A DNA stretch of 63,978 nt, the filler included, from Candidatus Woesearchaeota archaeon (GTDB lineage: Archaea > Nanobdellota > Nanobdellia > Woesearchaeales > CG1-02-33-12): assembly GCA_018399355.1 (NCBI GenBank). It is 6 parts of 6 records of this genome, joined end to end, with 100 filler letters (N's around TTAATTAATTAA, not from the genome) between each part and the next. Parts side by side here need not be neighbours in the genome. Positions count along the whole stretch, not along the records: positions 12,739 to 24,999 come from JAGYOA010000028.1; 5 more parts are not named here. One strand, given 5' to 3'. The notes under the pieces were generated by a model. The model searched no databases and was not told where the DNA came from. It saw only the letters and a list, made by a program, of their open reading frames with translations. Below, piece by piece: positions 70 to 19,810 of the stretch (position 1 is the first letter of the stretch; each line of letters begins with the position of its first letter). The position numbers and the translations under genes were made by a program.

Positions 70-2241
70 TTAACCGCCTGCGAATCCTGCTTCTAAAACC
101 GTTGTTGCAACAAAGTTGAAAAACAAGGTAACTATGAATGCTATAAATATGTAAAGTATTGTGCTTTTTATTAAATTCTGTCCAATTAAATATCTTTCAT
201 TAAGGGAATCTGAGCCGTTTTCAACACCATTTGCAAGTATTGTAAGAATATAAACAATCTGAACAACATACAACCCAACAATTATCTGGAAATAATAGGT
301 TGGCATTCCATCACCAAACATGCTTTCCATTCCGCCGGCGCCCATTGCAGCATCCCCTGATTCTGCTGCAAGGTCTCCCACTTGTGTTCCAAGCTTCTGC
401 AGGATTGTTGTAACCATGGATGTTATTCCAACAACAACCCCTGCAATTGCAGGAGCCATAAAAGATATCTGTGACTTCATTGATGATATAACATCTGCAA
501 GAAGATCCTTTAACCTTTCATCAACTCTGTGTATTTCCTTGATATACCTGGAAACATTTGTAAGCGCCTGTGCAGCAACCATGGGCCCTTTCTTAATGGC
601 CTGTATAAGCACCTTCATTGAGCTTTCTATTATGTTGGAAGGATAAAATAATATTGCCCCTGATTTTTCGTTGAATATTGCTTCCTTAACACCCATGCCG
701 AGCTTGGTTATATTCATGTTGACTACCTGAAAAAAGCTTCCGGAAGTGGTATCTCTCATTACATCCGCAACCTTACTGAATGCAATTTCAGCAGGAATTC
801 CATCCCCTAATCTGTTTCCAAGCTGGAACAGTGCTGATGCAAACTCATTCTCAAGCTTTTTTGTCTGCTCTCTTATCTTAATAAGGTTTTTTGACCTTAT
901 ATTATGGTATATTCCTATGCTTAATCCAAAAGCAAGGGTTATGAAAAAGCTCAGCAAAGCAGCTCCTAATCCAAAAGGCCCGACTATTTTTTCAACCATT
1001 GGACCTTCCTTGGCGACACTCACATGATAGTCAAGAAAATGGAATCCTGCAATTGGTGGAGGGTCAACAAAACCTGGGATAAGAGGAAGTATAACTGGAA
1101 GAATTCCAATGAAAAAAAGAAATACTCCAATAAATACACTCAAAAAAAGAGGGTTTATTCTCATCTCTGCCGGTCCTATTTTAAGAATGATATTCTTGTA
1201 TTTTGCAAGCTCGGGATTGGACTGAGATAAATCTGTTTCACCATAGCCCGTAGGTCTTTTTGAAAGGATTACTTTGCCGAAATAATAAACAATTATAGGT
1301 AGACTTACATTATAAATAACAGCTATATGGTACCATTTCACTGTTTCCATAAAGCTGACTATAAGAGGGAGTATAACCAGTCCAAGAAGAGGCATTATGA
1401 CTCCAAGCATATGAAGCGTCTGCATCGGAGACTGTAAATTATGGGCGTAATGAAGCATCTTCTCGTATGTTCCTTCAAGCATGACATCAAGAGCCCTATC
1501 AACTAAAGCCAATCTCCTGTCTTCAGACGGCTCATAAAGCGATGACTCAACAAGATGAAAGGATTCTATGAACTCTATGTTCCATTTTCTCCATGTCTCA
1601 AGATAGAGATCAAGGGCTTCTTTTACTGACTCATACTTTTCTGATTCAACGTCCCACAATATTTTTTTCAAATCCAAAGACAATGGGGGAGCGATATGCT
1701 CTGCTGCAAATGCTATTGCTCCCTCAAGATTCGATGTATGCCTCATGTACGTAACAACATAGAATATGCACTGGACCATCTGGTTGCTTGCCTTTAACCT
1801 CCAGTTGTTTGCTAAAAACTCAGGAAGTTTTCTAAGGACCATCATGAGAATAAGACCAACCAATATGAAATAAAAAACAAAAAAGAATGACTGAAATATG
1901 AAAAAGCTGATAAGGCTTCCAAAAAGCATTAAAACAAGGGGAGCAAATATCGCAAAGCTTTCTGTTCCTGAAGGAGTTACATTAAGGTGGCATATGCTTA
2001 TTGATTCCTCTAAAACTTCAGCGGTTTTTTTATCTGGCTTAAGCTTTAGAATGTTTTCGCTGGTTTTGCAAAGCTTTTCGTAAATGTTAAGCTCATTAGG
2101 AAGGTATTCTTTTTTGAAATCTGTGTACTCTTTTGATGACACCTCCTGCACTTTATAATTACCAGCAGAAATGTTCAACTCCTCATTTAGCTTCTCCTTA
2201 TACTTGTCAAGTATCTTTTTTAGTTCCTGGTCTTCTTCCAT
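70..2241 (-). CDS. TadC/ArlJ-like polytopic membrane platform protein (two type II secretion F-like repeats)
   Basis: 723 aa with many TM segments and two T2SS-F-like cytoplasmic repeats (TSNLEGAIAFAA; GDGIPAEIAFSKVA); lies 4 nt downstream of a secretion ATPase. Confidence 0.75.
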   Translation of the reverse strand: MEEDQELKKILDKYKEKLNEELNISAGNYKVQEVSSKEYTDFKKEYLPNELNIYEKLCKTSENILKLKPDKKTAEVLEESISICHLNVTPSGTESFAIFAPLVLMLFGSLISFFIFQSFFFVFYFILVGLILMMVLRKLPEFLANNWRLKASNQMVQCIFYVVTYMRHTSNLEGAIAFAAEHIAPPLSLDLKKILWDVESEKYESVKEALDLYLETWRKWNIEFIESFHLVESSLYEPSEDRRLALVDRALDVMLEGTYEKMLHYAHNLQSPMQTLHMLGVIMPLLGLVILPLIVSFMETVKWYHIAVIYNVSLPIIVYYFGKVILSKRPTGYGETDLSQSNPELAKYKNIILKIGPAEMRINPLFLSVFIGVFLFFIGILPVILPLIPGFVDPPPIAGFHFLDYHVSVAKEGPMVEKIVGPFGLGAALLSFFITLAFGLSIGIYHNIRSKNLIKIREQTKKLENEFASALFQLGNRLGDGIPAEIAFSKVADVMRDTTSGSFFQVVNMNITKLGMGVKEAIFNEKSGAILFYPSNIIESSMKVLIQAIKKGPMVAAQALTNVSRYIKEIHRVDERLKDLLADVISSMKSQISFMAPAIAGVVVGITSMVTTILQKLGTQVGDLAAESGDAAMGAGGMESMFGDGMPTYYFQIIVGLYVVQIVYILTILANGVENGSDSLNERYLIGQNLIKSTILYIFIAFIVTLFFNFVATTVLEAGFAGG

Positions 2242-2245
2242 AAAG

Positions 2246-4534: not shown

Positions 4535-4535
4535 C

Positions 4536-4685
4536 TTAACTTTTATTCTCCTCCTCTTTTTTAAGAAGCCTTATAGCAACCTCTATAAGGTGCGATTTAT
4601 TCCTATATTTAAGATTATCCTTAAGCTGAGAACTAATCCAGTAAACTAGCTTTTTGTCAATGGTTGCGCTTATTGGCTTTTTCAT
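4536..4685 (-). CDS. Small ribbon-helix-helix (CopG/Arc-like) DNA-binding protein, 49 aa; absent from ORF track
   Basis: Manual translation MKKPISATIDKKLVYWISSQLKDNLKYRNKSHLIEVAIRLLKKEEENKS; beta-strand ISATID followed by helices with the YRNKSHLIEVAI pattern; stop is 1 nt before the ATPase ATG. Confidence 0.7.
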   Translation of the reverse strand: MKKPISATIDKKLVYWISSQLKDNLKYRNKSHLIEVAIRLLKKEEENKS

Positions 4686-4728
4686 ATTATAAAATATATT
4701 TAATGTTTTTTATATTATTTTATAATAT
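4684..4728. promoter_or_regulatory. 13-bp perfect inverted repeat over the RHH start/promoter; candidate operator
   Basis: ATATTATAAAATA (4684-4696) and TATTTTATAATAT (4716-4728); further TTATAATAT copy at 4751-4759; all A/T, so chance is not excluded. Confidence 0.35.
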
Positions 4729-4815
4729 AATACCTATTTAAATTTTTCGATTATAATATACTACTTTACCGTGCTAACATAAGATTTATTATTAAGAGTG
4801 TTTATATTGTTAATT

Positions 4816-5199
4816 ATGGAGCAAGAAACACAAGAACAAAGCCCTAGAATTATGAATGTATCAACATTGATAAACAGTGTAAACAGACGCGTTAGGGTTC
4901 TTGAAGAAAGAAATAATCATTTACAGAGAAAAACAGAAGTTATTGAAGACAATATGATAAACAACCACAAAGAAGTTTCTGAAAAAATAAAAAAAATGAA
5001 TGAAGATGTAAAAGAAATAAAAAGAAATTTTGAAGAGGTAAAGGAAAGCATGAACCTTCTTGTAAGAGAAATCCAGTCAAAGGCAAAAAAGGATGATGTT
5101 GATTATTTAAAAAAATATATTGATCTTTGGAACCCTACTGATTTTGTTACCAACAATGAATTAGACAAAGCTGTTAAGAGGATATTAGGCAAGAAATAG
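4816..5199 (+). CDS. Coiled-coil hypothetical protein
   Basis: Heptad pattern throughout, C-terminal YIDLWNP; ATG 4816 lies about 30 nt after a TTTATTA box (probably leaderless). Confidence 0.7.
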   Translation: MEQETQEQSPRIMNVSTLINSVNRRVRVLEERNNHLQRKTEVIEDNMINNHKEVSEKIKKMNEDVKEIKRNFEEVKESMNLLVREIQSKAKKDDVDYLKKYIDLWNPTDFVTNNELDKAVKRILGKK

Positions 5200-5246
5200 A
5201 AAATTTTAAAAAGTCTCTGAGAAAACAATACAGTTAAGGTGAAATA

Positions 5247-5945
5247 ATGGCCTTATTCGGCTCAAAAAAAGGTGAAGAGGAAAACAATCAGGAATATGCA
5301 AACGCTGACCCTGTTGAACTAGTTCTGCAGATGCGAGATCAGGGGCTTTCCAACAACCAGATAATTTCAAGCATGCAGAGAGAAGGATACCAAACAACTC
5401 AGATTTTTGATGCAATGAACCAGGCCGATTTAAAGAGGGCAAACGGAGCTCCTGAGGAGCAAAACCAGTTCTCGCAGCAGCAATTTCAGCAGCAAATATC
5501 GCCTAATGAATTAATGTATCCTGATGAGCAGCAGCAATTTCAGCAGCCAAATCAGAATGTTCAGCAGGAAGTTTACAGCCAGCCAACTTATGACCAGGAA
5601 GATGCAACAAAAATAGAAGAGCTTGTTGAGGCAATTGTTGAAGAAAAATGGATTGACCTTGTAAAGGATGTAAAAAAGGTTATAGAATGGAAGTCAACTG
5701 TTGATTCAGATATTGCGTCAATAAAGCAGGAAGTTGATGACTTAAAGGAAAGCTTTAATTCTTTGCAGAAAAACATAATAGGAAAAATAGATGAGTATGA
5801 CAGGAATATATCCAGTGCAAGCACAAACATAAAGGCAATGGAAAATGTTTTTCAAAAGTCAATTCCAAGGTTCACTGAAAACATAAACGAGCTTTCAAGA
5901 ACAGTGGAAGATTTAAGAAACATGCATAATAAAAAGAAAAAGTAA
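5247..5945 (+). CDS. Hypothetical protein: helical N-domain, Gln-rich linker, C-terminal coiled coil
   Basis: 232-aa ORF with AAGGTGA RBS; QQQFQQ repeats; IEELVEAIVEEKW followed by heptads. Confidence 0.75.
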   Translation: MALFGSKKGEEENNQEYANADPVELVLQMRDQGLSNNQIISSMQREGYQTTQIFDAMNQADLKRANGAPEEQNQFSQQQFQQQISPNELMYPDEQQQFQQPNQNVQQEVYSQPTYDQEDATKIEELVEAIVEEKWIDLVKDVKKVIEWKSTVDSDIASIKQEVDDLKESFNSLQKNIIGKIDEYDRNISSASTNIKAMENVFQKSIPRFTENINELSRTVEDLRNMHNKKKK

Positions 5946-5953
5946 TTCTAATT

Positions 5954-6529
5954 TTATTTCATTATAATCTGCTGGGCTTCTCTCGATATAAAAGTCATTG
6001 CAAACGCCCCTATAATAAGGATTAATACTAATCCCAACAATTTTGGATGTGTTAAAGTTCCAACAAGGGCATCCTCTCCTTTTGTTCCAACTTCTGAGTT
6101 TTTTCCAGATATATTCATTTCACCGTTTTCTGTGGTTTCAGCTGTTCCTGAAAAAAAAGTTTTTCCAAGGGTTGAAAGGATTATTATAAGGATTATTATA
6201 AGCAGAAATGTTCTTGTGCCTCCTTCTGAGCCCATTATGCTTCTTACATCTGCATCATTTGCACCCATAAACCTATAAATTAGCAAGATAAAAAACAGAA
6301 AGAAAATTATAACAACAAAAGTTGGTGTTATAATGCTTATTATATCCCTTGTTGAGCTTGAGAAAATAACTAAAACAGCTATAAGAAACGCCAATATGGC
6401 GCTAAGATTCTTGTTTTCAGTGGGAAACTTTGTGGCCTGCATAACTGCAAAAACCAGAACAAAAAGGAATAAAAAGTAGAATATTATGTTGAAATATTCA
6501 AGCATTCCCATATCTAAAAAAGTTGCCAT
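5954..6529 (-). CDS. Polytopic membrane protein, paralog 3 of tandem triplet
   Basis: About 5 TM segments; N-terminal IIFYFLFLFVLVFAVMQAT aligns with the two neighbours. Confidence 0.8.
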   Translation of the reverse strand: MATFLDMGMLEYFNIIFYFLFLFVLVFAVMQATKFPTENKNLSAILAFLIAVLVIFSSSTRDIISIITPTFVVIIFFLFFILLIYRFMGANDADVRSIMGSEGGTRTFLLIIILIIILSTLGKTFFSGTAETTENGEMNISGKNSEVGTKGEDALVGTLTHPKLLGLVLILIIGAFAMTFISREAQQIIMK

Positions 6530-6534
6530 TTTTA

Positions 6535-7080
6535 CTATGGTTTTTTAACCACTAAATCTCTAAGTGGTTTAAATAAACCTTCTCCTCCACCTGTTACTGC
6601 AGCTATTACTATTCCAAAAACAAGCAAAACAAGCACAACGCTTAATGTATCTGAATCAATGTTAAACCAGTTGAACTTCGCCCACCATCCAGCTGAAAGA
6701 CCAAATAAATATATGACTACTGCAAATGCTATAAAAAGTATCCATCCTGAATTATTATCTTTTGTTTGATATCCAAAAACTCCTGAAAGCATTAATACCA
6801 TTATTATTGCAACTAAAACAAGGGCAATATCAGGAAGGAAACTGTTTATTATTAAAACAGCATTTTTTCCATGGGGATAGGTTCCCATTATGTGCGGAAT
6901 AACAACAACCATGGCAAGAACTAATGCTATAATTGTGTTAAACCTTTTACTGTCTTGTCCAAATATCATTGACTTTTGCAAAACTGCAAAAACAAGTGTA
7001 AATATAAGCAGGAACGGAAGCATTACATCAAGCATTCCCCAGCTTTCAAGTGTTTGAAAGACCTCGACTAAATTGGCCAT
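6535..7080 (-). CDS. Polytopic membrane protein, paralog 2 of tandem triplet
   Basis: About 5 TM segments; GMLDVMLPFLLIFTLVFAVLQKS; GGAGG RBS. Confidence 0.85.
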   Translation of the reverse strand: MANLVEVFQTLESWGMLDVMLPFLLIFTLVFAVLQKSMIFGQDSKRFNTIIALVLAMVVVIPHIMGTYPHGKNAVLIINSFLPDIALVLVAIIMVLMLSGVFGYQTKDNNSGWILFIAFAVVIYLFGLSAGWWAKFNWFNIDSDTLSVVLVLLVFGIVIAAVTGGGEGLFKPLRDLVVKKP

Positions 7081-7096
7081 TTTTTAACCTCCTTTT

Positions 7097-7675
7097 TTAT
7101 TCTTCTTTTTTTTCTTTTTTCGGACCGCCGGATTTGGTTATCCAGCCCATTATTAGTATAACAAAAAATATGAGTATTAGAGATGCAACCCAATCAGTGT
7201 TCCACTTGGTGCTCATGAAATCCATTATCCATCCCAGCCATGACTGGCCGCTTTCTGTTTTTATTGCATTGAGGAATATCCCGATTATTCCAACAAACAT
7301 TATAATAGTGAATATTCCTGTCCATGGTTTTTCAAGGAAAAAACCTTCTTCTTTTTCCTGAGCAAATGAACCAACGAGCATAAGGAAAAGTATTGAAAGC
7401 AACAAAAGTATGACGACCTGAGATGAAACTGTTGTTATCACCTCAACAAGCTTTGACGATGCCACAACAAAAAAAGCAACAACAAAAGCAACCATTGCAT
7501 CCAGGTTCTTTTTTGTGTATTTTTTATTGTCAACCTTGTCATATCCAAAAATCGCTGTTTTTTCAAGTATTGCAAAAACAATTGTGAATACAAGAAGGAA
7601 TGGAAGGATAACATCATATATCCCAAGCTTGGCCATAAAATCAATTGTTCCTCTGAATACAGATTGCTCAACCAT
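7097..7675 (-). CDS. Polytopic membrane protein, paralog 1 of tandem triplet
   Basis: About 5 TM segments; GIYDVILPFLLVFTIVFAILEKT; own TTTATATA box at about 7700-7707 on the minus strand. Confidence 0.85.
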   Translation of the reverse strand: MVEQSVFRGTIDFMAKLGIYDVILPFLLVFTIVFAILEKTAIFGYDKVDNKKYTKKNLDAMVAFVVAFFVVASSKLVEVITTVSSQVVILLLLSILFLMLVGSFAQEKEEGFFLEKPWTGIFTIIMFVGIIGIFLNAIKTESGQSWLGWIMDFMSTKWNTDWVASLILIFFVILIMGWITKSGGPKKEKKEE

Positions 7676-7733
7676 CCTGTATTATCAGTAGTTGAAGTAT
7701 ATATAAAGTTTTCGCTTTTTAAAGAGGAAGTTT

Positions 7734-8498
7734 TCAACTTTTTATGAAAACGCGCTGATAGTTCATGAATATATTGTTTGCAACTTCTTGCTTATCCATG
7801 AATTTTATTTCAGCTATTTTATTTATTGTTCGAATTATGAAAGCCGGCTCATTTCTTTTATCTTTGAATGGGCTAAGAAAAGGAGCATCTGTTTCTGTTA
7901 AAATTTGGCTTAGGTCAACAATTTCAACCATTTTCTGGAATTGTTGTGATCTCACTATATTGGTTGGAACTGAAAAATAATATTTAAGTTTTGCAGCTTT
8001 TTTTATCAAGTTAATTTTTCCGCTGAAACAATGAAGAACAACTTTTTCAGCTTTTTCTTTTTCAAGTATTTCAATTGTTTCCTGTTCTGCTTTTCTTGTG
8101 TGCACTATTATCGGCTTTTTGATTTTTTTTGCAAGTTTTATTATTTTTTTGAATGCGCTAATTTGTCTTTGCTTTTGTTTTTCATCATCATTGTATTTAA
8201 AATCCAGTCCTACTTCTCCAACTGCTATTATTTTATTTTTATTTTTCTCAATGAATTTTATTTCATTTTCTATTTCTCCATCACTCATTTCATTGACATA
8301 TTCAGGATAAAGGCCGAGAGCAGCCTTAACAATATCATACTTTTCGCTTATTTCAAGAACCTTTAAGTTGCTTTCATGATTAATTCCGTTAGTAATAATA
8401 GCCTTTACTCCTTGTTTTTTGGCCCTCTGAATAACTTCATCTAAGTCAGAATCAAATTCTTTCATATCAAGATGGGCATGAACATCAACTAATAACAT
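7734..8498 (-). CDS. tatD: TatD-family metal-dependent DNase
   Basis: DVHAHL, AVGEVGLD, VHTR, LHCFSG and ETDAPF motifs. Confidence 0.92.
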   Translation of the reverse strand: MLLVDVHAHLDMKEFDSDLDEVIQRAKKQGVKAIITNGINHESNLKVLEISEKYDIVKAALGLYPEYVNEMSDGEIENEIKFIEKNKNKIIAVGEVGLDFKYNDDEKQKQRQISAFKKIIKLAKKIKKPIIVHTRKAEQETIEILEKEKAEKVVLHCFSGKINLIKKAAKLKYYFSVPTNIVRSQQFQKMVEIVDLSQILTETDAPFLSPFKDKRNEPAFIIRTINKIAEIKFMDKQEVANNIFMNYQRVFIKS

Positions 8499-8535
8499 AA
8501 AAAGAAAAATTGTTCTTTTTTATTTAAAGCTTTGT

Positions 8536-9561
8536 TTAATCAACAATAACTGTGTCTAATTTGTCAAGATTGCAGAAGTCAGTTGAGTATGTGTAGGCCC
8601 CTGCATTCAGAAAAACAATTTTATCTTTAACTTTTGGATTTTCAAGATAAACCCTATATCTAAATATATCCATTGAATCAGGAGTGCATCCTTTTATAAC
8701 ATAAGGAGTTCCATTTTTTAATTCATTTTCAATCAGCAATCTTATATCTGCAACAAAGGTATCCATTGCAGAATTGAAAACAGAGCAGTTGATAACAATA
8801 TTATTATCATATATATTGATAATCTCTGCTTCAAGCTTTGCACAAGGGGCAGCAATAAAACGCCCGGGCTCTGAAATCATTTCTATGTTGTAAGAATTAA
8901 GCCATTCCTTAAGCTCTTTTATTTTTTTAAATATTAAATCCTCGACATTATCATTGTAGTTTCTATAACCCACAGGCATTCCCCCTCCAATGTTAACAAT
9001 ATCTATATTTTTCATTGTTTCATCAGAAATTGATTTGCTTAATTCATATTTCAATGACCATTCTCCTATGTTTTGTGTTTTTCTGTGAAAGTGTATACCA
9101 AGCTTTCCTATATTTTTGTTCTCCCTCAGTTCAGGAATAAGCTTATTAACTTGTGAAGAATAAAGTCCGTAAACATAGTGCTTTCCTGTTTTTACTGTGT
9201 TTTCCTTTAACCTCATTCTCAAAAGAAGGTTTATTTTCTTTTTATTTTTAGAAATATAATCAAGCAAAACCTCTAAATCATTCTCATTGTCAACAACAAA
9301 GTTTTCAACCTGGTTTTCAAACAAAATATCAAGGTCTTTATCATTCCATGCCTGTGCAAAAAACCATATTCTTTTCTTATCTTTAATATAATTTAAGGAT
9401 TTCATAAAATGCACTGAAAAAAAGCATTTTGTTTTTTCTTCAAGAATTTCAGCAACGATTGGATTTGTCTTTACGCTGTATGAAACAATGTCTGAAATTT
9501 TTTTTATCTTATTGTACTGCTCAATAACCTTTGACCTTGAAAGTATGAACCTTGCCTTCAT
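8536..9561 (-). CDS. PLP-dependent group IV (Orn/Lys/Arg/DAP-type) decarboxylase, divergent
   Basis: YSVKTNP (PLP lysine), HFH, NIGGG, EPGRF, GAYT; GCTPDSMD in place of GPTCDxxD. Confidence 0.8.
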   Translation of the reverse strand: MKARFILSRSKVIEQYNKIKKISDIVSYSVKTNPIVAEILEEKTKCFFSVHFMKSLNYIKDKKRIWFFAQAWNDKDLDILFENQVENFVVDNENDLEVLLDYISKNKKKINLLLRMRLKENTVKTGKHYVYGLYSSQVNKLIPELRENKNIGKLGIHFHRKTQNIGEWSLKYELSKSISDETMKNIDIVNIGGGMPVGYRNYNDNVEDLIFKKIKELKEWLNSYNIEMISEPGRFIAAPCAKLEAEIINIYDNNIVINCSVFNSAMDTFVADIRLLIENELKNGTPYVIKGCTPDSMDIFRYRVYLENPKVKDKIVFLNAGAYTYSTDFCNLDKLDTVIVD

Positions 9562-10496
9562 TCTATTACTCCTTCTTTTTTCAGTGTTTCCAGGGCTTTT
9601 ATCATAGCTATTGGAAATGTTATTGAAACATCTCCAATCACAGTTGCCTCATCTGCATCATCCTTTACTTTTCCCCATGATTTTGCCTCTTTTGTTGTTG
9701 CGCCGCTCATGCTTCCAGAAAAATGTCTTGCAGTAGTCATGTAAACAGCATAATTCATTCCTCCATTTAATAGACAGGAGAATATTGCATGATGCTTTGA
9801 AACCCCTCCTCCAAGAGAAATAACTCCCTTTCTTTCATCATGGCTTGTTGAAAAAAGTATATTTGCAAAATCCTTTACAACATCAACCACAAAATCAGGA
9901 TGTTTTTGCTGGAACATAAAAAGATGAAACCCAAAAGAGCCGTCTGTTATCGCAGGGCAGAATATTGGCACATTATTTTTTGCTGCCTGAAAAAGTATTG
10001 AATTTTCATCATCAATCATCAATCCAATCTCTTTCAATAATTCTGAAACAGGCCATCTTTTTTTCTTATCATAAAGCTTTTCAAGCATTGGCATTATCAT
10101 ATCCTCGAATTTTGCATAGCTCTCGTTCTTTATGAATAAATTTCCAACGCGGTTTACCCCTTTTTCATAAAGCTCTATATCATCTATATTAAAATCCCCT
10201 ATGATGAATTTTTCTCCTATTGCCTTCATTATGTCTTCCTCAAGACCACCTACAGTTGTAACAATCACATCAGCCATTTTAATATTAATAAGCTGGGCAA
10301 AAAATCCTCTTAATCCAGAAGTAACCATATTAGAAGTAAAGGTAAGAAATATCTTTACTCCCTCTTTTTTCATTTTAATGATTATATTAGAGGCCTTTTC
10401 AAGCTCAACTCCCTGAAATCCAACTTTACCTATTTTTTCCACTAATTCATTAACCTTCATTCTATATTCCCATTTAAAATCATTAACATTATCCAT
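9558..10496 (-). CDS. dys: Deoxyhypusine synthase-family protein
   Basis: FTSNMVTSGLR, GGLEEDIMK, PAITDGS, GSMSGA, EAKSWGK (catalytic Lys); GGAGTGG RBS before ATG 10496. Confidence 0.92.
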   Translation of the reverse strand: MDNVNDFKWEYRMKVNELVEKIGKVGFQGVELEKASNIIIKMKKEGVKIFLTFTSNMVTSGLRGFFAQLINIKMADVIVTTVGGLEEDIMKAIGEKFIIGDFNIDDIELYEKGVNRVGNLFIKNESYAKFEDMIMPMLEKLYDKKKRWPVSELLKEIGLMIDDENSILFQAAKNNVPIFCPAITDGSFGFHLFMFQQKHPDFVVDVVKDFANILFSTSHDERKGVISLGGGVSKHHAIFSCLLNGGMNYAVYMTTARHFSGSMSGATTKEAKSWGKVKDDADEATVIGDVSITFPIAMIKALETLKKEGVIE

Positions 10497-10666
10497 TATA
10501 ACCACTCCAAAAAGATATAGCTAAAACTACTAAAAAGAAAAAATCATGAACCCATTTTTCTTACTGAACTCATGTTAAAAAGGATAAAAAGGCAGTATTT
10601 AAGCTTTTCTATAATCGTGCAAAAGCTTTAAATATAATGCATAATTCTCTTGATATGGTGATAATT

Positions 10667-11086
10667 ATGGGTGTAATTGGAATTGATTTCAATAAAATAC
10701 AGGTTGAGAGAACAGGCAACCTAAAAGGAGAGATAAAGATAAACAACAATGTTTCTGTAAAAAGTATTGATAAGATAGATGTCCCAATGAAAAAAAGCGA
10801 CCAGGAAGGCTTAAGTTTTGGGTTTGAATTCACATCAACATATGAGCCAAAGGTTGGCAAAGTAACAATAAATGGAAGTGTCATTGCAGTTGAAGACAAG
10901 AAAATAGCAGAGCAGGCTGTAAAAGACTGGAAAAAAGACAAAAAAACGGAAAGCGATATTATGACAAAAGTGATGAATTCAATACTTGAAAAATGCCATA
11001 TTGAATCATTGATTTTGAGCAGGGAAGTTAAACTGCCTCCGCCAATACCTTTGCCAAAAGTAAAGGCGAAAGAAAAACAAGAATAA
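10667..11086 (+). CDS. Conserved archaeal hypothetical protein (beta-rich) upstream of cdc48
   Basis: GGTGA RBS before ATG 10667; C-terminal LSREVKLPPPIPLP. Confidence 0.7.
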   Translation: MGVIGIDFNKIQVERTGNLKGEIKINNNVSVKSIDKIDVPMKKSDQEGLSFGFEFTSTYEPKVGKVTINGSVIAVEDKKIAEQAVKDWKKDKKTESDIMTKVMNSILEKCHIESLILSREVKLPPPIPLPKVKAKEKQE

Positions 11087-11141
11087 AACCAAAACATTTA
11101 TTTATTACTTTTAATTCTTATACTTTCAGTTAGGGGGTAAA

Positions 11142-12638
11142 ATGTCAGAAAAAGAGATAAAACTAAAGGTTATTGAGGCCCTTCCGGATGATGTAAACAA
11201 GGGCATAGTAAAGATTGATTCAGATTTGCTTCCAAAAATAGATTTAAGGTTAGGTGATATTGTAAGAATCAAGGGTGAAAGAGAAACTGTTGCAATAGTT
11301 GAAAGAGGATATCCTGGTGATAAAGGTCTTAACCTTATAAGAATGGATGGAATAACAAGAAGAAATGCAAAAACAGGCATTGGAGAGGTTGTTTCTGTTT
11401 CAAAGGCAGATGTAAAAGAGGCAAAAAAAATAATAATTGCACCTGCAAGCAAAGGGCTTGTTGTTAATGCTCCTCCCCATATATTCAAGCAGGGGCTTAT
11501 TGGAAAAGCAGTAACCAAGGGAGATATAATCTCTTTAGGCTATAGCTCTCAAAGAAGAAAAAGTGAGGAAATTGATGATATTTATGATATGATAAGCAAG
11601 AGCATGATGGGATTTGGATTAGGAAGCATCAAGTTTGTTGTTGCTGACGCAAACCCAAAGGGGGAGGTTGTCATATCAGAGCTTACAGAAGTAGTATTTA
11701 ATCCAGAGGCAGTAGAAATAAAAGAGGAAAAATTTCTTGAAGTAACTTATGATGATATAGGCGGGCTGAAAGATGAAATCAGCAAGGTAAGAGAGATGGT
11801 TGAGCTTCCTTTAAAGCATCCTGAATTATTTGAAAGATTGGGAATAGATCCTCCAAAAGGAGTATTACTTCATGGCTCACCTGGAACAGGAAAAACATTA
11901 CTGGCCAAAGCAGTTGCAAATGAAACAAACTCTCATTTTTTATTGATTAATGGCCCAGAGATAATGAGCAAGTTTTATGGTGAATCAGAGGGAAACTTAA
12001 GGAAAAAGTTTGAGGAGGCAGAAAAAAATGCGCCATCCATAATTTTCATAGACGAGATAGATGCAATCGCCCCAAAAAGAGAGGAATCTCGGGGAGAGGT
12101 TGAAAGAAGGGTTGTTGCTCAATTGCTTGCTTTAATGGACGGGCTTAATGCCCGCGGAAAGGTAGTTGTTATTGCAGCAACAAACATTCCAAATGCGATT
12201 GACATTGCATTAAGAAGGCCGGGAAGATTTGACAGAGAAATAGAAATAGGAATTCCAAGCAAAGAAGGCAGGGAAGACATACTAAAGATACATACAAGGA
12301 ATATGCCTTTGGCAAAAAATGTCAATATTAAAGAGATAGCCAACAAAACATACGGCTTTGTTGGAGCAGATTTAGCAGCATTGTCAAAAGAAGCTGCTAT
12401 GATAGTGTTGAGAAGGCTCTTGCCGGAAATCAAGATAAGGGAAGACAACACCATACCTAAAGAAATACTTGAGAAATTAAAGATAACAAGAAAAGATTTT
12501 AATTCAGCATTAAAAGTAGTAAGGCCTTCTGCATTAAGGGAAGTTTTGGTTGAGGTTCCTGATGTTAAATGGGATGATATTGGCGGTTTAGATGAACAAG
12601 TAAAAAAAGAAAGAGAGATCTATTTTATAGAAAATGTG
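11142..12638 (+). CDS. cdc48: Cdc48/VCP-family AAA+ ATPase, truncated by contig end at the start of D2
   Basis: N-domain [12 protein letters not shown]1 [39 protein letters not shown]2 starts VKWDDIGGL. Confidence 0.93.
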
Positions 12639-13520: not shown

Positions 13521-14552
13521 ATGGGGACACAGATAAAGTCCATTCTTGAGGCAAGGGAAATATCAATTGATGATTTAAAAGGAAAAACCTTGGTTGTTGA
13601 TTCCTATAATCTTCTTTATCAGTTTATTACAACTATTCGCGGAAGAGACGGCTCTTTATTAATGGATTCAAGGGGAAATGTAACCTCTCATCTTATTGGA
13701 ATTTTTTCAAGAATAACAAAAATGATGCAAAAAGAGATAAGATTTGTTTTTGTTTTTGATGGAGAAGCTCCAAAATTAAAGCAAAGGGAAAGGGAAAGAA
13801 GAAAAGAAATTAAGATTGATGCAGAGAAAAAATACCAGAATGCAGTTAAAGAGGAAAATGTGGAGGATATGAAAAAATATGCTGCAAGAACATCAAGATT
13901 AACAAAAGATATGATTAATGATGCAAAAGAGCTTATTGATGCCCTTGGGCTGCCTATTATCGATGCCCCTTCAGAAGGGGAGGCCCAGGCATCATACATG
14001 GTTAAAAACCAAGATGCAGATTATTGTGTTTCGCAGGACTTTGATACTATTTTGTTTGGGTGTCCTTATCTTATAAGAAATCTTTCAATTGCAGGAAAAA
14101 GAAAGGGAAAGGGATTGTCATACACGACCATAAATCCTGAGATGATAAATCTTTCTGAAAACCTAAATAATCTTGGTATTGACCAGAACCAGCTTATTGC
14201 TCTTGGAATGCTTGTTGGAACTGATTATAATAAGGAAGGTATAAAGGGAATAGGCCCAAAAAATGCCCTAAAGCTTGTAAAAGAGTATGGCTCTGACTTT
14301 GAAAATTTGTTTAAAAAGGTTAATTGGAATGAAATTGTTGAAACTAAATGGAAAGAAATATTTAACTTATTTGTAGATATGCCTGTAAAAAAAGACTATA
14401 ATTTAGAATGGAAAAAACCTAATAAGGAAAAGATAATTAAAATTCTTGTTGATGATCATGATTTTTCTATGGAAAGAGTTAAAAGCACTGTTGAAAAGCT
14501 TTTAAAAGAGAATCATAAAAAACAGCAAAAGGGATTAGGGGACTTTTTTTAA
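13521..14552 (+). CDS. fen: Flap endonuclease 1
   Basis: VDSYNLLYQF, FVFDG, APSEGEAQA, SQDFD, GTDYN, GIGPK; C-terminal PIP box QKGLGDFF. Confidence 0.96.
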   Translation: MGTQIKSILEAREISIDDLKGKTLVVDSYNLLYQFITTIRGRDGSLLMDSRGNVTSHLIGIFSRITKMMQKEIRFVFVFDGEAPKLKQRERERRKEIKIDAEKKYQNAVKEENVEDMKKYAARTSRLTKDMINDAKELIDALGLPIIDAPSEGEAQASYMVKNQDADYCVSQDFDTILFGCPYLIRNLSIAGKRKGKGLSYTTINPEMINLSENLNNLGIDQNQLIALGMLVGTDYNKEGIKGIGPKNALKLVKEYGSDFENLFKKVNWNEIVETKWKEIFNLFVDMPVKKDYNLEWKKPNKEKIIKILVDDHDFSMERVKSTVEKLLKENHKKQQKGLGDFF

Positions 14553-14553
14553 A

Positions 14554-15417
14554 ATGGAATGGTATTTTTTTGCAATAACAACTGCTGTTCTTGTTTCAAT
14601 TTACACTTTAGTTGAAAAAAAAGCTTTGATGAAAGAACATGCAATGGAATTTTCTACTGTTCTTGCTATATTTAATTTTTTGATTTCTCTTTTTCTTATT
14701 CCTTTTATTAATATAGACTTTCCAATAAGTCTTCTTGGCTTAATGTACCTTGCTTCATTAATGGGGTCTATTGGGTTTCTGCATATTGCAAAGGCAATAA
14801 AACACATGGATGTATCTTTGGTTGCTCCGCTTACAACATTCAGCCCTGCTTTTGTGGTTGTTTTGGCTTATTTTATTCTAGGTGAGAGGGTAACACTTAT
14901 CCAGATTGGAGGAATAGTTTTGCTTATAATGGGCTCTTTCCTTCTTGAATCAAAAAACCATGGAACAATAAAAATATTTACGAGAACTTTCAAATCAAAT
15001 TATTTTTATTATATGTTTTTTGCATTAACCTTGTATGGATTTTGCGCAATAATAGATAAATTTGTATTAAAAACAGTTTCACCAGTAACCTATCTTCCAA
15101 TAATTAATTTATTTCTTGCATTGAATTTTATTATTTTTATAAGTGTATTTCACAATGGGTTTCAGGGAATAAAAAATGGGATAAAAAGCAATGGCAAATG
15201 GATTTTTTTAGTTGCTGTTTTGATATCGTTATCAAGGCTTTCTCAGTATCAGGCCTTTTCAATGGCCTATGTAAGCCTTGTGATCCCAATAAAAAGGATG
15301 TCTGCCTTCTTTGCCACATTGATAGGGGGCAAAATATTCCACGAAAAAAACCTTGCTAAGAGAATTTTTGCCTGCATTATAATGCTCTGCGGCGCTTTTC
15401 TTGTTATTTTAGGTTAA
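14554..15417 (+). CDS. EamA/DMT-family transporter
   Basis: About 10 TM segments in two repeats; AIKHMDVSLVAPL, ILGERVT, IFHEK. Confidence 0.85.
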   Translation: MEWYFFAITTAVLVSIYTLVEKKALMKEHAMEFSTVLAIFNFLISLFLIPFINIDFPISLLGLMYLASLMGSIGFLHIAKAIKHMDVSLVAPLTTFSPAFVVVLAYFILGERVTLIQIGGIVLLIMGSFLLESKNHGTIKIFTRTFKSNYFYYMFFALTLYGFCAIIDKFVLKTVSPVTYLPIINLFLALNFIIFISVFHNGFQGIKNGIKSNGKWIFLVAVLISLSRLSQYQAFSMAYVSLVIPIKRMSAFFATLIGGKIFHEKNLAKRIFACIIMLCGAFLVILG

Positions 15418-15448
15418 ATTTAAATACTGTTTATTGATATTTTATTTT

Positions 15449-17239
15449 ATGTTGTCGTTAAAAGTTCCTTTGAAAAAAGCAGAGCAGGTTAAAAAATACC
15501 TAATAAACAATAATCTTTTTGATAAGGAAAGGGTTTTTGAAAAAAACAAAAATTTCATATATTTCCCAATTCTTGAAAAAAATAATTTAAAGAAGAAATT
15601 CAGTTTTGTTGATTTTACAAACAAAGAATTAAAAAAAGTAAAGAAAGAAAGCATAACTGACTTATTAAATAAAAAACTAACAAAAGAAGAATTAAGCCTT
15701 GTTCCTTCTGCTTTTGATGTTATTGGAGATATAATAATTCTTGAAATAAAGCCAGGGCTTGAGAAAAAAGAGAAGATTGTTGCAGAGGCCTTCCTTAAAT
15801 TAAATAAAAACATAAAAACAGTTGCAAAAAAATCAGGAATTCATAAAGGTGTTTTCAGGACTCAAAAACTAAAGGTTTTAGCAGGTGAAAAAACAAAGGA
15901 AACCATACATATTGAAAACAATGTAAGAATAAAGCTTGATGTTGAGAAAGTTTACTTTTCCCCAAGATTGAGCAATGAAAGAAAGAGGATAATGAAAATT
16001 GTAAAGCCAAATGAATCAGTCTTAGTTATGTTTTCAGGATGTGGACCCTATCCTGCCGTGCTTTCAAAAAATACAAATGCAAAAGAAATTTATGGTGTTG
16101 AAATTAATCCAACAGCGCATAAATATGCAGTTGAAAATATTAAACTAAATAAATTAAGAAATGTTGAATTGTTTTTAGGTGATGTTAATGAGATTCTGCC
16201 TGAACTGGGCAAAGAAATGATTAGCTTAAAGTCAAGATGGCAAAAAAAGTATATTCATCCAAAGTTAAAGCAAAACCCTAAATTAATAGAATTTTACATG
16301 CCAGAAAAGGATATGGAATCAGAAAAAACCTTATTGAAAATAGACAAAACAATAAAAGAACTTTCAAAAAAGCAGATAAAGATAATGATTCATATGCCTT
16401 TTAGTTATAAAGGAGAATATATAGGTCTTTCAAAAAATAAGAATAATTCAAAAAAATCATTTGAATGCATAAAAAGGCTTGATTGGCTTTCTAAAAATAA
16501 TTCTAATGTAATTGGATTTGTTTTTCATCCTTTAGGTGAAAATTTTAATTTAGAAAATTACAGTGAAAAATATTTCTTTGAAAATTTAGATTATCTTGAA
16601 AAACAGAATCTCCTTGATAATCTTTATCTGGAAAACTGCCCTGGGCCTATTTTTGGTTCAAATAAAGATATATTAAATGTTATAAAAAAATCAAAGTTAA
16701 GGCATATGTGCTTTGACTTTGCACATTATATGATAAGCAATAAAAAGATAAGTGTAAAAGACTACAAAAATATCTCATCAGAGATTGATGTTTATTCTCA
16801 TGTTGTGAACCATAAACTGAATAATAAAGAGCACTGCTGCAGACTAAGAGAGGGAGATATTGATTTTAAGGAATTTGCAGAGCATATTGATAAAGGATGC
16901 ATTGAAGTTTACAGCAAAAGCGAGATTGAGGCAGAAGAACAAATAGATGACTGGAAGTATTTTTTATCAATAAAGCCAAGAAAAAAGTTTGACAGGATAT
17001 TAATGCCTCTGCCAAAGTCAGCAGAGGATTTTCTCGAGCTGGCCTTAAAATCAATAAAAAAACAAGGAATAATACACTTCTATGACTTTCTAAATGAGAA
17101 TGAGTTTTATAAGGCCAAAGAAAAGATAATAAAGGCCTGCAAAAAGGCAAAAAAGAAATGCAAGATTTTAAGAATTGTCAAGTGCGGCCAACACGCCCCT
17201 CATGTTTTCAGAATTTGTGTGGATTTTAAGGTTTGTTAA
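15449..17239 (+). CDS. trm5: Trm5-family tRNA (m1G37) methyltransferase with inserted xylose-isomerase/AP-endonuclease-2 TIM-barrel domain
   Basis: FDVIGDI, VYFSPRLSNER, MFSGCGPY, VEINP, GDV, then a ~258-aa insert, then FDRILMPLPK, GIIHFYDF, RICVDF. Confidence 0.85.
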   Translation: MLSLKVPLKKAEQVKKYLINNNLFDKERVFEKNKNFIYFPILEKNNLKKKFSFVDFTNKELKKVKKESITDLLNKKLTKEELSLVPSAFDVIGDIIILEIKPGLEKKEKIVAEAFLKLNKNIKTVAKKSGIHKGVFRTQKLKVLAGEKTKETIHIENNVRIKLDVEKVYFSPRLSNERKRIMKIVKPNESVLVMFSGCGPYPAVLSKNTNAKEIYGVEINPTAHKYAVENIKLNKLRNVELFLGDVNEILPELGKEMISLKSRWQKKYIHPKLKQNPKLIEFYMPEKDMESEKTLLKIDKTIKELSKKQIKIMIHMPFSYKGEYIGLSKNKNNSKKSFECIKRLDWLSKNNSNVIGFVFHPLGENFNLENYSEKYFFENLDYLEKQNLLDNLYLENCPGPIFGSNKDILNVIKKSKLRHMCFDFAHYMISNKKISVKDYKNISSEIDVYSHVVNHKLNNKEHCCRLREGDIDFKEFAEHIDKGCIEVYSKSEIEAEEQIDDWKYFLSIKPRKKFDRILMPLPKSAEDFLELALKSIKKQGIIHFYDFLNENEFYKAKEKIIKACKKAKKKCKILRIVKCGQHAPHVFRICVDFKVC

Positions 17240-17607
17240 AACCAGAATATGCTTCTAAATGTAATTCCTAGTATTGTTGCAATAAGTCCAAAAATAAAAT
17301 TAAAGACAACTATAAAGGCAAGGTGTATCAACCAAACAAGAGCTGCCTTATACCACTTTAATCTAAAAACTTCATGATATATCCATATCAAAATAATAAA
17401 AGCTATTAAAGCTCCCCATGTTCTGAAAAGAAAGTTTATGATTGAAACTATTATTCCTGAAATCAGGGTTACAATTGCTGTCTTAAAAAGAGTTGTTTTT
17501 CCATTAAGCAGCTTAACAGCAAAGTACAAAGGAAGAGCTGAAATTAGGAATATAATTATCAATATAAGAAATGCAATTATTACTGCTGTTGTTATTATCC
17601 CTATCAT
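17236..17607 (-). CDS. Small polytopic membrane protein
   Basis: 123 aa, about 4 TM segments. Confidence 0.7.
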   Translation of the reverse strand: MIGIITTAVIIAFLILIIIFLISALPLYFAVKLLNGKTTLFKTAIVTLISGIIVSIINFLFRTWGALIAFIILIWIYHEVFRLKWYKAALVWLIHLAFIVVFNFIFGLIATILGITFRSIFWF

Positions 17608-17834
17608 TTTTTAATCAATTTATTATTCTTTTTTTGTTCAGTTCCACCTATACCAATAGTAAACAAAGTAAACGAAACCAGTATAAATATTGCCCCAAGA
17701 GAATAACCTTGCGGGGAAGGCGATTTTGGAAGGCCAATAACTGCTCCAGTTATATTTGCCTGTAAATTAACTAATAAAGATAATCCAAAAACCAAAAAAA
17801 CAAAACTTAGTATAGATGCTGTTTTCTTTTCCAT
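17604..17834 (-). CDS. Small two-TM protein with ITGAVIG motif
   Basis: MEKK start, TM, NITGAVIG, TM; overlaps the downstream gene by ATGA. Confidence 0.6.
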   Translation of the reverse strand: MEKKTASILSFVFLVFGLSLLVNLQANITGAVIGLPKSPSPQGYSLGAIFILVSFTLFTIGIGGTEQKKNNKLIKK

Positions 17835-17923
17835 TATAGGTATATATGGGTTAATCATATATATAAAACTTTCTAGACTTTAATAGAGATAATTATATAT
17901 ATAATATAAACTTCTTTTATACT

Positions 17924-18028: not shown

Positions 18029-19810
18029 TCAAACAACAAACTTGCCTTTCTTTATTATCCAGTGCATTTTATTGTCTTTATCAAGGCCGTATATATCCAT
18101 TTTCTGCTTTGGTGAGTTAATCACAATATCCCAATGATACAATGTTTTCCTGTCAGGGTCAAAACCCATGCCCAATGCAATATGAATCATCCTTGCTATT
18201 TTTTCATTAACAATCAGATAATCAGAAAGTTTTGCATGTGGATTAAGGTTGACTGCAAACTCTCCAATATAATTAAAGCATCTTTTGTACATATCTGTCA
18301 TTGATTTAGGAAGGGCCTTATTTTTTTCTATTCCTTTTATCTTTTTTATAACATCCTTTTTCTGTTTTTTAATCTTGTCAACTATATTTTTTGGGCCGTC
18401 AATTATTCTGTAAATGTTATCTTTCACTTTTATAACTAAGGGCTTTCCCTTGTCAAGGCGATAGCTCTGGTCAATGTTTATCACAACATCTCCAACAAAC
18501 AATCCTTCTAGTTTTTCTGGTGTTACAAATACCTCTCCTGAAGGAAAATTAGCATAAAGACCTGTTTTAAGCCCTGTTTCCTTGTAATACTGCTTGTCTA
18601 TCTTTGAGGTTACATCAGAATCAGATGCAATAAAATACCTTCTTTTGTTTTTCTCACCAACTAAATGCACTGTGATGTCTGTTTTAAGACCTTTAATTTC
18701 CTTTCCAATAACCCTTATTTTCTCGCACTTGTCAAGTATTGATTTTATCTTGCTGCTCCTCTTCCTTATTGTTTCATAGTTAACATTGCATGTTTCAATA
18801 AAAATATCTATAGGGAGTGTTTCTGTCATTGCATATCTCATCATAGGGTCACGACTTTCATATTTTGTCTGTGCTTCATATCTGTCTTTAAGCATCATCT
18901 GCCCGGGGCTCATCCATCTTGACTTTTTGTTTAAGGTTGGATAACCAATATTCTCTCCAAAAAACATCTTTCCAGAATATCCCTTTCCATGTATTCCAAA
19001 TCCTGCATCAACAAACTCCATTTTATTTGATTCAATTAATGGAGAAAGTTTTTTGAATTTCTTGAAAACAGCTTCATCAACATTTTTATCAATCTCACAT
19101 CCTGTTAAGGTGGATTTTAAATCAACTGTTCTCATGCTTTTTGCAACCATTGAAAATCTGTTTGTTGATGCTCCCAAAGAAACATCAGCTTTCATCTTTT
19201 TTGCCTGAAAGGCCATTGCCATCGCAATATCATAAGACCCAAGATAATCATTTAATGGAAGTTCTAGATCTTCTTTTTTGGGTATTAGTTCAAAGGTTAT
19301 TCCAATCCTCTCATTTTTCTTTAAATCATAACCTTTCTTAAGGATTGTTTTTGCAGTTTCAACAAGCTCATTCCATCTGTATTTTTTATGCCAATCGTAT
19401 TTATACCCTAAATCAATTGTTCCCTTAAATCCATTTTTTCCTGATTCTATGAAAAACTCAGGTTTTTTGAATATATCCTTGAAAGCCTTTGTTTTTGTTC
19501 TTCTATTAACTTCCTTTATAAAAGAGTCAAGTGCTTTTGTCTTATTTGTCTTAAGGCCTTTCTTTAAATCATCATAAGCCTGCCATATATTTTTCAGGAT
19601 CTCAAGATTTTGTGATTTTTCATTCTTTACAACAACATGCATATCTGCATTAAGGTTATGTACTGCCCTGCTTAAAGGGGCCAGAGAATAAAATGATTTT
19701 TCATTCTTTAAATCACAGACAACAAACAAAATCTTATTCTCAATCTTGCCTTTCAGCTGCTTTTCATAATAATTCACATTGCTGTTGAATTTTCTTTTAT
19801 TGTATTTCAT
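18029..19810 (-). CDS. M29/aminopeptidase T-like metallopeptidase with long N-terminal region
   Basis: NFPSGEVFVTP, IGEFAVNLNP, EKIARMIHIALG, HWDIVI. Confidence 0.7.
   Translation of the reverse strand: MKYNKRKFNSNVNYYEKQLKGKIENKILFVVCDLKNEKSFYSLAPLSRAVHNLNADMHVVVKNEKSQNLEILKNIWQAYDDLKKGLKTNKTKALDSFIKEVNRRTKTKAFKDIFKKPEFFIESGKNGFKGTIDLGYKYDWHKKYRWNELVETAKTILKKGYDLKKNERIGITFELIPKKEDLELPLNDYLGSYDIAMAMAFQAKKMKADVSLGASTNRFSMVAKSMRTVDLKSTLTGCEIDKNVDEAVFKKFKKLSPLIESNKMEFVDAGFGIHGKGYSGKMFFGENIGYPTLNKKSRWMSPGQMMLKDRYEAQTKYESRDPMMRYAMTETLPIDIFIETCNVNYETIRKRSSKIKSILDKCEKIRVIGKEIKGLKTDITVHLVGEKNKRRYFIASDSDVTSKIDKQYYKETGLKTGLYANFPSGEVFVTPEKLEGLFVGDVVINIDQSYRLDKGKPLVIKVKDNIYRIIDGPKNIVDKIKKQKKDVIKKIKGIEKNKALPKSMTDMYKRCFNYIGEFAVNLNPHAKLSDYLIVNEKIARMIHIALGMGFDPDRKTLYHWDIVINSPKQKMDIYGLDKDNKMHWIIKKGKFVV

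Follow-up and report, generated by a model that had tools for sequence, protein, structure and literature searches.

How does a tRNA methyltransferase come to hold a second complete enzyme fold inside its catalytic domain, and what might that fold do? The question is raised by a gene at 15449..17239 (+) of a 63,978-nucleotide stretch of DNA (hereafter the window) from a Candidatus Woesearchaeota archaeon (GCA_018399355.1), whose 918-kb genome is 97.5% complete. The window consists of joined contigs, and features are not continuous across the joins; positions 1–12638 are contig C20, and the gene lies on C21 (window position 16211 is C21:3473). The gene encodes a genuine two-enzyme polypeptide, in which a triosephosphate isomerase (TIM) barrel of the endonuclease IV (Endo IV) family is nested in the organism's only Trm5-family methyltransferase. 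Trm5 is among the best-studied and most conserved tRNA-modification enzymes, and a second metalloenzyme within its Rossmann fold, found in more than 100 lineages, is absent from the current picture of either Trm5 or the Endo IV family.

Architecture of the fused protein

The gene is a single uninterrupted open reading frame (ORF), 15434..17239 (+), of 601 residues counted from TTG 15434, which is the residue numbering used here. The probable start is ATG 15449, five codons after the TTG, giving 596 residues before the stop codon at 17237–17239; the same start occurs in relatives (ML..KVPLK) and in a 100%-identical database protein, P0003 (596 aa). The Trm5 Rossmann fold is broken in frame between GDVNEILPELG (16178–16210) and KFDRILMPLPK (16985–17017). 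Because insert-free relatives read straight through this point, aligning as GDVxxVVPxLK followed directly by KFDRIxMPLPK, the extra 258 residues (260–517) occupy exactly 16211..16984 (+), with junctions PELG/KEMISLK and IKPRK/KFDRIL. They are placed in the loop between the short helix that follows strand 3 (helix C) and strand 4, and this site, between two catalytic motifs, is identical in all fused forms. A first-pass annotation of the window had described an in-frame split of about 258 residues at this point and a series of barrel motifs within it; the ORF and the alignment to insert-free relatives bear out the split, and all of the motifs are present, in frame and in the order given.

Pfam recovers the TRM5/TYW2 methyltransferase domain (PF02475, E 1.2e-46) as two stretches, the second covering profile positions 99–163, with a weak AP_endonuc_2 match between them (residues 303–487). 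The AlphaFold2 model of the whole protein, built on a 46-sequence alignment, has a predicted local distance difference test score (pLDDT) of 92.7 and a predicted template modelling score (pTM) of 0.80. The Pfam split and the models agree in placing a whole TIM barrel inside the S-adenosylmethionine (SAM)-binding domain, as the annotation had proposed. Foldseek aligned ~600 columns of the whole model with Pyrococcus abyssi Trm5a and Trm5b and Methanocaldococcus jannaschii Trm5 (E 2e-30 to 3e-24), so the alignment runs across the insert.

The junctions are real. A 1371-nt contig from another study (X2, ~90% identical) covers 15956–17239 and thus spans both of them, while contigs of X3 and X1 span 16158–16306 and 16625–17239, respectively. 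A search for the same insertion point in other genomes found it in many relatives, and more than 100 protein clusters share the architecture, which is therefore neither an assembly artefact nor a singleton. In-frame conservation and a low ratio of non-synonymous to synonymous substitution rates (dN/dS) argue that the insert is translated. The proteins are already in public databases, some with both Pfam domains precomputed, and the component families are known; a full-text search of the published literature found no description of the nested Trm5/barrel architecture, and the combination is apparently undescribed, as had been supposed.

The Trm5 host domains

The host portion has the D1–D2–D3 layout of Trm5, recognised by Pfam as Trm5_N (D1; residues 9–50, 15458..15583, E 2.2e-07), TYW2_N_2 (D2; residues 74–154, 15653..15895, E 5.7e-23) and the TRM5/TYW2 methyltransferase, all on the plus strand. 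The N-terminal half of the class I methyltransferase domain (residues 157–259, 15902..16210), delimited by Pfam, conservation and the model, ends after the short helix and carries the motifs YFSPRLSNERKR (15953–15988), SAM motif I MFSGCGPY (16028–16051), VEINP (16097–16111) and GD (16178–16183). The C-terminal half (residues 518–601, 16985..17236) supplies strand 4 (FDRILM), the catalytic-loop PLPK (17006–17017) and the remaining strands. Both halves are intact, in keeping with the first-pass annotation: the YFSPRL..ER motif, the MFSGxxPY SAM loop, ExNP and MPLPK are unchanged in all 46 fused proteins. Residues Y174, S176, R178, R183, R185, M199, F200, G202, P205, E223, N225 and P226 are invariant in this set, and E182 and D250 are each kept in 90% or more of it.

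The catalytic loop (M524, P525, L526, P527 and K528) is likewise invariant in the 46 proteins, with Leu-Pro-Lys retained and the Asn of NLPK replaced by Pro. The annotation had singled out PLPK in place of NLPK; the motif is there, but it is a lineage trait common to insert-free Woesearchaeal Trm5 and no correlate of the insert. Some insert-free relatives have NLPK or PAPH. MPAPH replaces MPLPK in some Trm5 proteins of the order, whether fused (L096) or unfused (L100), and the unfused Trm5 of genome G327 has the canonical MNLPK. Because all three forms occur, the loop is unusually variable in this lineage.

Judged by these profiles and motifs, membership of the TRM5/TYW2 superfamily is not in doubt. 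The NCBIfam equivalog models for Trm5b (247.3 bits, cut-off 600) and Taw22 (225.8 bits, cut-off 550) both match in two stretches split by the insert, and since these scores are far below the cut-offs the protein is assignable to neither. Compared with archaeal Trm5 (Trm5b and Trm5a-Taw22; P. abyssi 5yac, 5hji and 5wt1; M. jannaschii 2zzn and 2yx1), the fused protein has the same domain layout and class I SAM fold, conserves YFSPRLxxER and the SAM motifs, keeps the (N/P)LPK loop and gives Foldseek TM scores of 0.68–0.76 normalised to the target; it differs in the 258-aa foreign domain between strand 3/helix C and strand 4, and in having PLPK rather than NLPK.

No second Trm5/TYW2-family gene is present in the genome, whose other PF02475 matches are MTS-family and GCD14/TrmI-family methyltransferases. 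Because the genome has Taw1 and Taw3 and no alternative gene of the family, the fused enzyme presumably supplies 1-methylguanosine at tRNA position 37 (m1G37) and starts the wyosine branch; m1G37 formation by its Trm5 part would probably feed Taw1 and Taw3.

Fold and family of the barrel

Modelled alone on a 34-sequence alignment, the insert adopts eight strand/helix repeats (pLDDT 93.6, pTM 0.91), a predicted (β/α)8 barrel of the xylose-isomerase/Endo IV type. The best structural match is MJ1311 (3wqo; Z 22.0, 236 residues aligned), followed by the Endo IV proteins of Mycobacterium tuberculosis (5zhz; Z 20.5) and Thermotoga maritima (2x7w; Z 19.6) and by Escherichia coli Nfo (1qtw; Z 19.1), with 234–244 residues aligned in the Endo IV-type matches. 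Sugar epimerases reach Z 17–21. PMC2770678 gives MJ1311 as the protein of M. jannaschii that corresponds to PF0258, an archaeal Nfo homolog that is only 13.5% identical to Nfo yet a proven apurinic/apyrimidinic (AP) endonuclease, with activity abolished by mutation of His70, His110 and Glu261.

Sequence profiles are more discriminating. Searched against 177,635 PDB sequences, a profile of 34 inserts reached M. tuberculosis Endo IV (E 2e-07), APN1 (E 0.004) and nothing else with E below 0.01, and no sugar enzyme at E 1 or better. A PDB search with the single insert sequence gave nothing meaningful (best E 0.52). By sequence profile, then, the insert is nearest to Endo IV. PF01261 is matched at E ≤ 0.01 by 27 of the 34 inserts (best 1.5e-16), and many fused homologs have it precomputed. 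The nfo (deoxyribonuclease IV) models do not match this insert, and two other inserts gave no match or a weak UvdE match only; because no nfo family model matched, we file the domain as Endo IV-like rather than as Nfo.

Relative to the Endo IV family (E. coli Nfo, M. tuberculosis End, T. maritima 2x7w, archaeal PfuAPE/PF0258 and MJ1311), the insert shares the same (β/α)8 barrel but is not free-standing, matches no nfo model and has an additional invariant Lys and Glu on strands 1 and 2; a further difference is that the position we take to be D229 of Nfo is not conserved.

Metal ligands and selection

The barrel motifs are IHMP (16388–16399), VFHP (16520–16531), LYLEN (16622–16636), CFDFAH (16709–16726), SHV (16796–16804), KEH (16826–16834), EGDIDF (16850–16867) and CIEV (16898–16909), all on the plus strand. 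They contain eight Endo IV-type ligands, with codons at 16391–16393 (H320), 16526–16528 (H365), 16631–16633 (E400), 16715–16717 (D428), 16724–16726 (H431), 16799–16801 (H456), 16832–16834 (H467) and 16904–16906 (E491). The correspondence was established by profile alignment to M. tuberculosis Endo IV, in which H320, H365, E400, D428/H431, H456 and H467 fall on ligand positions; in Nfo numbering the matching residues are presumably H69, H109, E145, D179, H182, H216, H231 and E261.

Invariant in all 34 inserts are K266, E286, H320, P322, H365, E400, D428, H431, Y454, H456 and E491, so that, of the nine metal-ligand positions of Endo IV, seven never vary, and the earlier statement that most ligands are retained stands. 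K266 (16229–16231, strand 1) and E286 (16289–16291, strand 2) are specific to this family and occur also in its free-standing homologs. The eighth position, H467, is His in 27 inserts, Glu in four and Asp in three. A two-metal site can safely be predicted from the alignment. The third metal is uncertain; because the ninth ligand is unconserved and H467 is variable, that site may be lost.

In seven close pairs, dN/dS was 0.06–0.26 for the insert and 0.07–0.17 for the Trm5 part; purifying selection on the insert is equal to that on Trm5. The catalytic residues are unchanged down to ~25% identity between inserts. The barrel is not a catalytically dead singleton, and we regard the nested architecture together with the catalytic competence of the barrel as very probable.

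Distribution and free-standing relatives

Among 120 homologs listed, 117 are 504–611 aa long; they come from Woesearchaeota/Nanoarchaeota metagenome-assembled genomes of many sources. Of 401 genomes sampled from the phylum, 26 have the barrel inside a 521–642-aa frame, the present genome included and all of them in its order, and three more have it as a free-standing gene of 263–275 aa; this tally takes in G359 (fused) and G321 (a weak match), and nothing depends on either. The fused state is patchy even within GTDB genera (two of three genomes in g9, one of ten in g18).

The barrel also exists as a free-standing gene family of ~260 aa. An exhaustive search by profile yielded 576 representatives; of these, 141 match at E ≤ 1e-10. 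The best 150 of the 576 comprise 37 fused proteins, 70 free-standing proteins of 217–293 aa that cover the full profile, and 43 fragments or other forms. A word-indexed search with the insert profile in the 131–501-aa range gave only three truncated Trm5 fragments. The free-standing proteins open with the same xIGLKS strand as the insert and keep the same invariant residues. Free-standing homologs of ~255–290 aa, such as P0139, P0156 and P0162, resemble the insert over the full profile, and some are from the same order; they retain its K, E, H, H, E, D/H, H, E set and differ in being separate genes not adjoining Trm5, uncharacterised and without an informative database name. Genomes with a free-standing barrel have an ordinary Trm5 of 339–343 aa elsewhere.

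The neighbours of the three free-standing copies are, in one locus each, an RsmB/F methyltransferase and NFACT; a P-type ATPase, an amidohydrolase and a diphthamide synthase; and an FAD-binding protein, CMAS, SET and PheRS. The neighbours differ among the three loci, which show no conserved operon around the barrel. A P-type cation ATPase lies near the barrel in two of the three loci (L093, barrel 6056–6829 (−) and ATPase 7325–10045 (+); L094, barrel 5794–6603 (−) and ATPase 3014–5566 (−)); the two loci come from different families, and the proximity may be chance or shared synteny.

One genome, G046, has a 493-aa Trm5 (L103:1439–2920 (−)) with a different insert of ~163 residues at the very same site, which lacks the His ligands, and retains the barrel as a free-standing gene (L094:5794–6603). 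The match of this insert to the barrel profile (E 1.7) is not significant, and on that score we do not call it a barrel remnant. The site may be a hot spot for insertion, or the G046 insert may be a remnant that can no longer be recognised.

Evolutionary history

With the insert columns removed and five truncated loci left out, the Trm5 tree has 76 rows. Fused and unfused proteins are interleaved on it; parsimony counts 15 changes of state, and well-supported branches force at least five of them. A single clade of the 34 fused rows, a group defined by the fused trait but named after the tree had been seen, is rejected by the approximately unbiased (AU) test (log-likelihood difference 433.7, p-AU 3.7e-64). 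The unfused L067 is 78–80% identical to its fused sisters. The state also varies inside GTDB genera, yet those pairs are only ~57–59% identical.

The barrel tree, rooted on the genome's own Endo IV-like protein, has free-standing proteins as its outermost rows, and free-standing clades of 15 rows (support 99) and 36 rows (support 98) are nested among the fused ones. Parsimony gives six changes of state, at least two of them forced by well-supported branches. The shallow clades of the insert tree match those of the host tree, pairwise distances in the two correlate (Pearson 0.64, Spearman 0.23), and the comparison revealed no near-identical inserts in divergent hosts.

We take the simplest account of these trees to be one old insertion, followed by repeated loss or allele exchange and by at least two fissions. 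A free-standing barrel gene would have been inserted once into the Trm5 of an early Woesearchaeal lineage; the insert would then have been lost repeatedly, or swapped from one allele to another by recombination in the Trm5 sequence on either side of it, and at least two fissions would have returned the barrel to a separate gene.

Proposed function and alternative explanations

To our knowledge, the characterised His-rich members of this fold (Endo IV, UvdE and CbiR) are all phosphodiesterases. For that reason, and because the free-standing homologs weakly match CbiR, a metal-dependent phosphodiesterase or phosphatase is favoured. By this analogy the barrel is probably a phosphodiesterase, with a two- or three-metal centre that would hydrolyse a phosphodiester or phosphomonoester as in those three enzymes. 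Because it is nested in Trm5, tRNA or RNA bound by Trm5 is the most economical substrate; this part of the proposal is tentative, and we would put it somewhat short of even odds. Nesting would then most likely serve to bring the barrel's activity to the tRNA or RNA held by Trm5, for example to heal ends or make incisions within the anticodon loop or close to it. Taken as a whole, the explanation that an Endo IV-type phosphodiesterase was nested in Trm5 by the insertion history above and is delivered to Trm5-bound tRNA or RNA has, in our estimate, a probability of roughly 45%.

A more specific version, which we consider doubtful, would make the barrel the first RNA-directed member of the Endo IV family, with Trm5 positioning the anticodon loop and the metal centre healing or incising the backbone at or next to position 37. 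That is where the canonical archaeal tRNA intron sits, where many anticodon-loop nucleases cut and where the labile wyosine base is found. If this version is true, host-dependent archaea would have a built-in step of tRNA repair or quality control, and the free-standing homologs would act in trans. More generally, action on tRNA would extend Endo IV chemistry to RNA and point to a DPANN-specific step of tRNA repair or processing, whereas action on DNA would make the protein a remarkable instance, among reduced genomes, of two genes fused by the nesting of one domain in another.

The first-pass annotation had proposed a bifunctional enzyme that couples G37 methylation to a metal-dependent step on tRNA, with a hydrolase, an epimerase and a nuclease or repair enzyme as options. 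The two-enzyme architecture holds; the coupling, like any action on tRNA, is less secure, since the barrel is separable from Trm5 and four of 29 barrel carriers have no detectable Taw1. Taw1 was found in 307 of all 401 genomes sampled and in 25 of the 29 carriers, the tally taking in G332, G243, G321, G395, G242 and G359; it had no match in three fused genomes (G109, G189 and G257) and in one with a free-standing barrel (G292). A strict dependence of the barrel on the wyosine pathway is accordingly rejected.

Several observations weigh against the proposal of a Trm5-delivered phosphodiesterase. Structure alone does not part Endo IV from the sugar epimerases, Z falling from 22 to 17 across the superfamily. 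The insert of this protein scores 21.8 bits against a Pfam PF01261 threshold of 31.1, and none of the NCBIfam models matches it. Conservation is lacking at the ninth Endo IV ligand, the Asp of D-x-H; the partner His is replaced by Glu or Asp in seven of 34 inserts, and the equivalent of H467 is absent from one free-standing clade. In class I methyltransferases, the N-terminal end of strand 4, where the insert leaves the Rossmann fold, is presumably opposite the SAM/G37 pocket. The three free-standing loci (L093, L094 and L095) do not adjoin Trm5 and have no conserved partner; because the barrel thus also works as a separate gene away from Trm5, the fusion may be incidental. No barrel homolog was found in four of five insert-free relatives tested, so Trm5 function does not need the barrel.

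An unlikely alternative is that the barrel is a second DNA-repair enzyme, an AP endonuclease/3′-diesterase merely attached to Trm5 in reduced genomes and without a role on tRNA. Its nearest sequence relatives of solved structure are Endo IV and APN1, and MJ1311, according to PMC2770678, belongs to an archaeal family with a proven AP endonuclease from Pyrococcus furiosus. Free-standing homologs that are not beside Trm5, and many relatives without any barrel, are what a redundant repair paralog would be expected to show. However, this genome already has a much more canonical, PfuAPE-like Endo IV homolog (60 bits against TIGR00587, where the insert has no match), as do three of five other fused genomes; the insert is 25% identical to that homolog over 174 residues and has its own invariant K266 and E286. 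Nesting under purifying selection in more than 100 lineages would also be a strange arrangement for an unrelated DNA enzyme. The presence of the separate PfuAPE-like gene led us to reject the idea that the insert replaces the ordinary AP endonuclease.

Action on a small molecule, nucleoside or nucleotide, by a sugar isomerase/epimerase or a CbiR-like phosphodiesterase that possibly adds or takes off a group on a modified-base precursor, is rather less credible. The fold is common to tagatose and psicose epimerases, UlaE and IolI, among others (Z 17–21; Foldseek E 1e-8 to 1e-6 for the insert against such barrels), and the E/D/H/E ligand set of epimerases is contained in the conserved set. CbiR is a cobamide-remodelling phosphodiesterase, and the free-standing homologs match it at 22–29 bits against a cut-off of 105. 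Neighbours in the ESM Atlas fall only in generic TIM barrel/sugar phosphate isomerase clusters, named 'sugar phosphate isomerase/epimerase', but these names are automatic and generic. The PDB profile search, which found Endo IV, placed no sugar enzyme at E 1, and H320, H365 and H431, which we take to be characteristic of Endo IV and UvdE rather than of epimerases, are invariant; on these two grounds the epimerase option of the annotation is less likely than a phosphodiesterase. DPANN genomes such as these, of 0.9 Mb, would moreover be expected to have very little sugar metabolism.

It is very improbable that the insert is a selfish, homing-type element, a nuclease gene settled at a conserved site in an essential gene, that spreads between Trm5 alleles by recombination and is tolerated because the barrel ends are adjacent. 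The patchy distribution within genera, the interleaving of fused and unfused forms with rejection of a single clade, an identical insertion site between two catalytic motifs, the existence of free-standing relatives and the unrelated insert of ~163 aa that G046 has at this position would all fit such an element. On the other hand, insert divergence scales with host divergence, shallow clades agree and no near-identical inserts were seen in divergent hosts; the insert shows dN/dS as low as that of its host and invariant catalytic residues, with no sign of a cycle of homing-gene decay. Pfam detected no intein, Hint, LAGLIDADG, HNH or GIY-YIG signature in the whole protein, the junctions (G/KEM and PRK/KFD) lack the Cys/Ser/Thr and His-Asn of inteins, and we know of no homing nuclease with the Endo IV fold.

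That the barrel is no longer an enzyme but a structural or tRNA-binding module, for example one that widens or restricts the substrate range of Trm5, is scarcely credible: loss of the ninth ligand, variability of the eighth and the absence of D1 from a subset of fused proteins (520–555 aa), which perhaps need a substitute binding surface, would be in its favour, but seven ligands plus K266, E286 and Y454, invariant in 34 of 34 fused proteins and conserved in the free-standing ones, are hard to explain without catalysis.

Whichever substrate the barrel uses, the protein is a natural example of a TIM barrel tolerated within a methyltransferase fold, and its fused, free-standing and absent states provide natural controls for biochemistry.

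Other Endo IV-like barrels and neighbouring genes

Four barrels of this fold are present in the 0.9-Mb genome. Besides the insert, there is the stand-alone PfuAPE/Nfo-like protein of 263 aa (L002:1459–2250 (−)), which scores 107 bits against PF01261 and whose 60 bits against TIGR00587 compare with a cut-off of 129.65; a second stand-alone PF01261 barrel of 252 aa (L003:1447–2205 (+)), adjoining an IspH-like ORF; and a split Endo IV-like barrel of 638 aa (L004:79–1995 (+), on G000:C1), in which PF01261 matches only residues 475–563.

The split barrel belongs to the same superfamily and lineage as the Trm5 insert and likewise involves a large domain insertion, but its topology is reversed: there the barrel is the host, with a ~300-aa interruption, whereas in Trm5 it is the guest. 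It is a different paralog, and the profile of 34 inserts matches such frames weakly (for example in G164, E 3e-12). It is followed by a 267-aa ORF without a Pfam match (L004:2056–2859 (+)) and, directly after that, by Taw3/TYW3 (G000:C1:12087–12626 (+)). Of 24 Taw3 loci, drawn from 22 genomes of the order, 12 have a homolog of the 267-aa ORF immediately upstream of Taw3 and in the same orientation (ten complete and two cut by the locus end). The split barrel can be seen in every case where the 1.5-kb flank of the Taw3 locus extends far enough, namely in the present genome, L113 and L123. A second Endo IV-like barrel is thus syntenic with a wyosine enzyme, which weakly hints at a circumstantial tie of such barrels to the enzymes of G37.

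Upstream of the fused gene, and on the same strand, lie genes for FEN1 flap endonuclease (13521–14552 (+)) and an EamA-family transporter (14554–15417 (+)). The adjacency of FEN1 is plain synteny, since FEN1 adjoins Trm5 in both fused (L096) and unfused (L099) relatives. Downstream and on the opposite strand are two small hydrophobic ORFs of 123 and 84 aa (17236–17858 (−)), followed by a 593-aa ORF (18029–19810 (−)) with a marginal Peptidase_M29 match at its C-terminus only.

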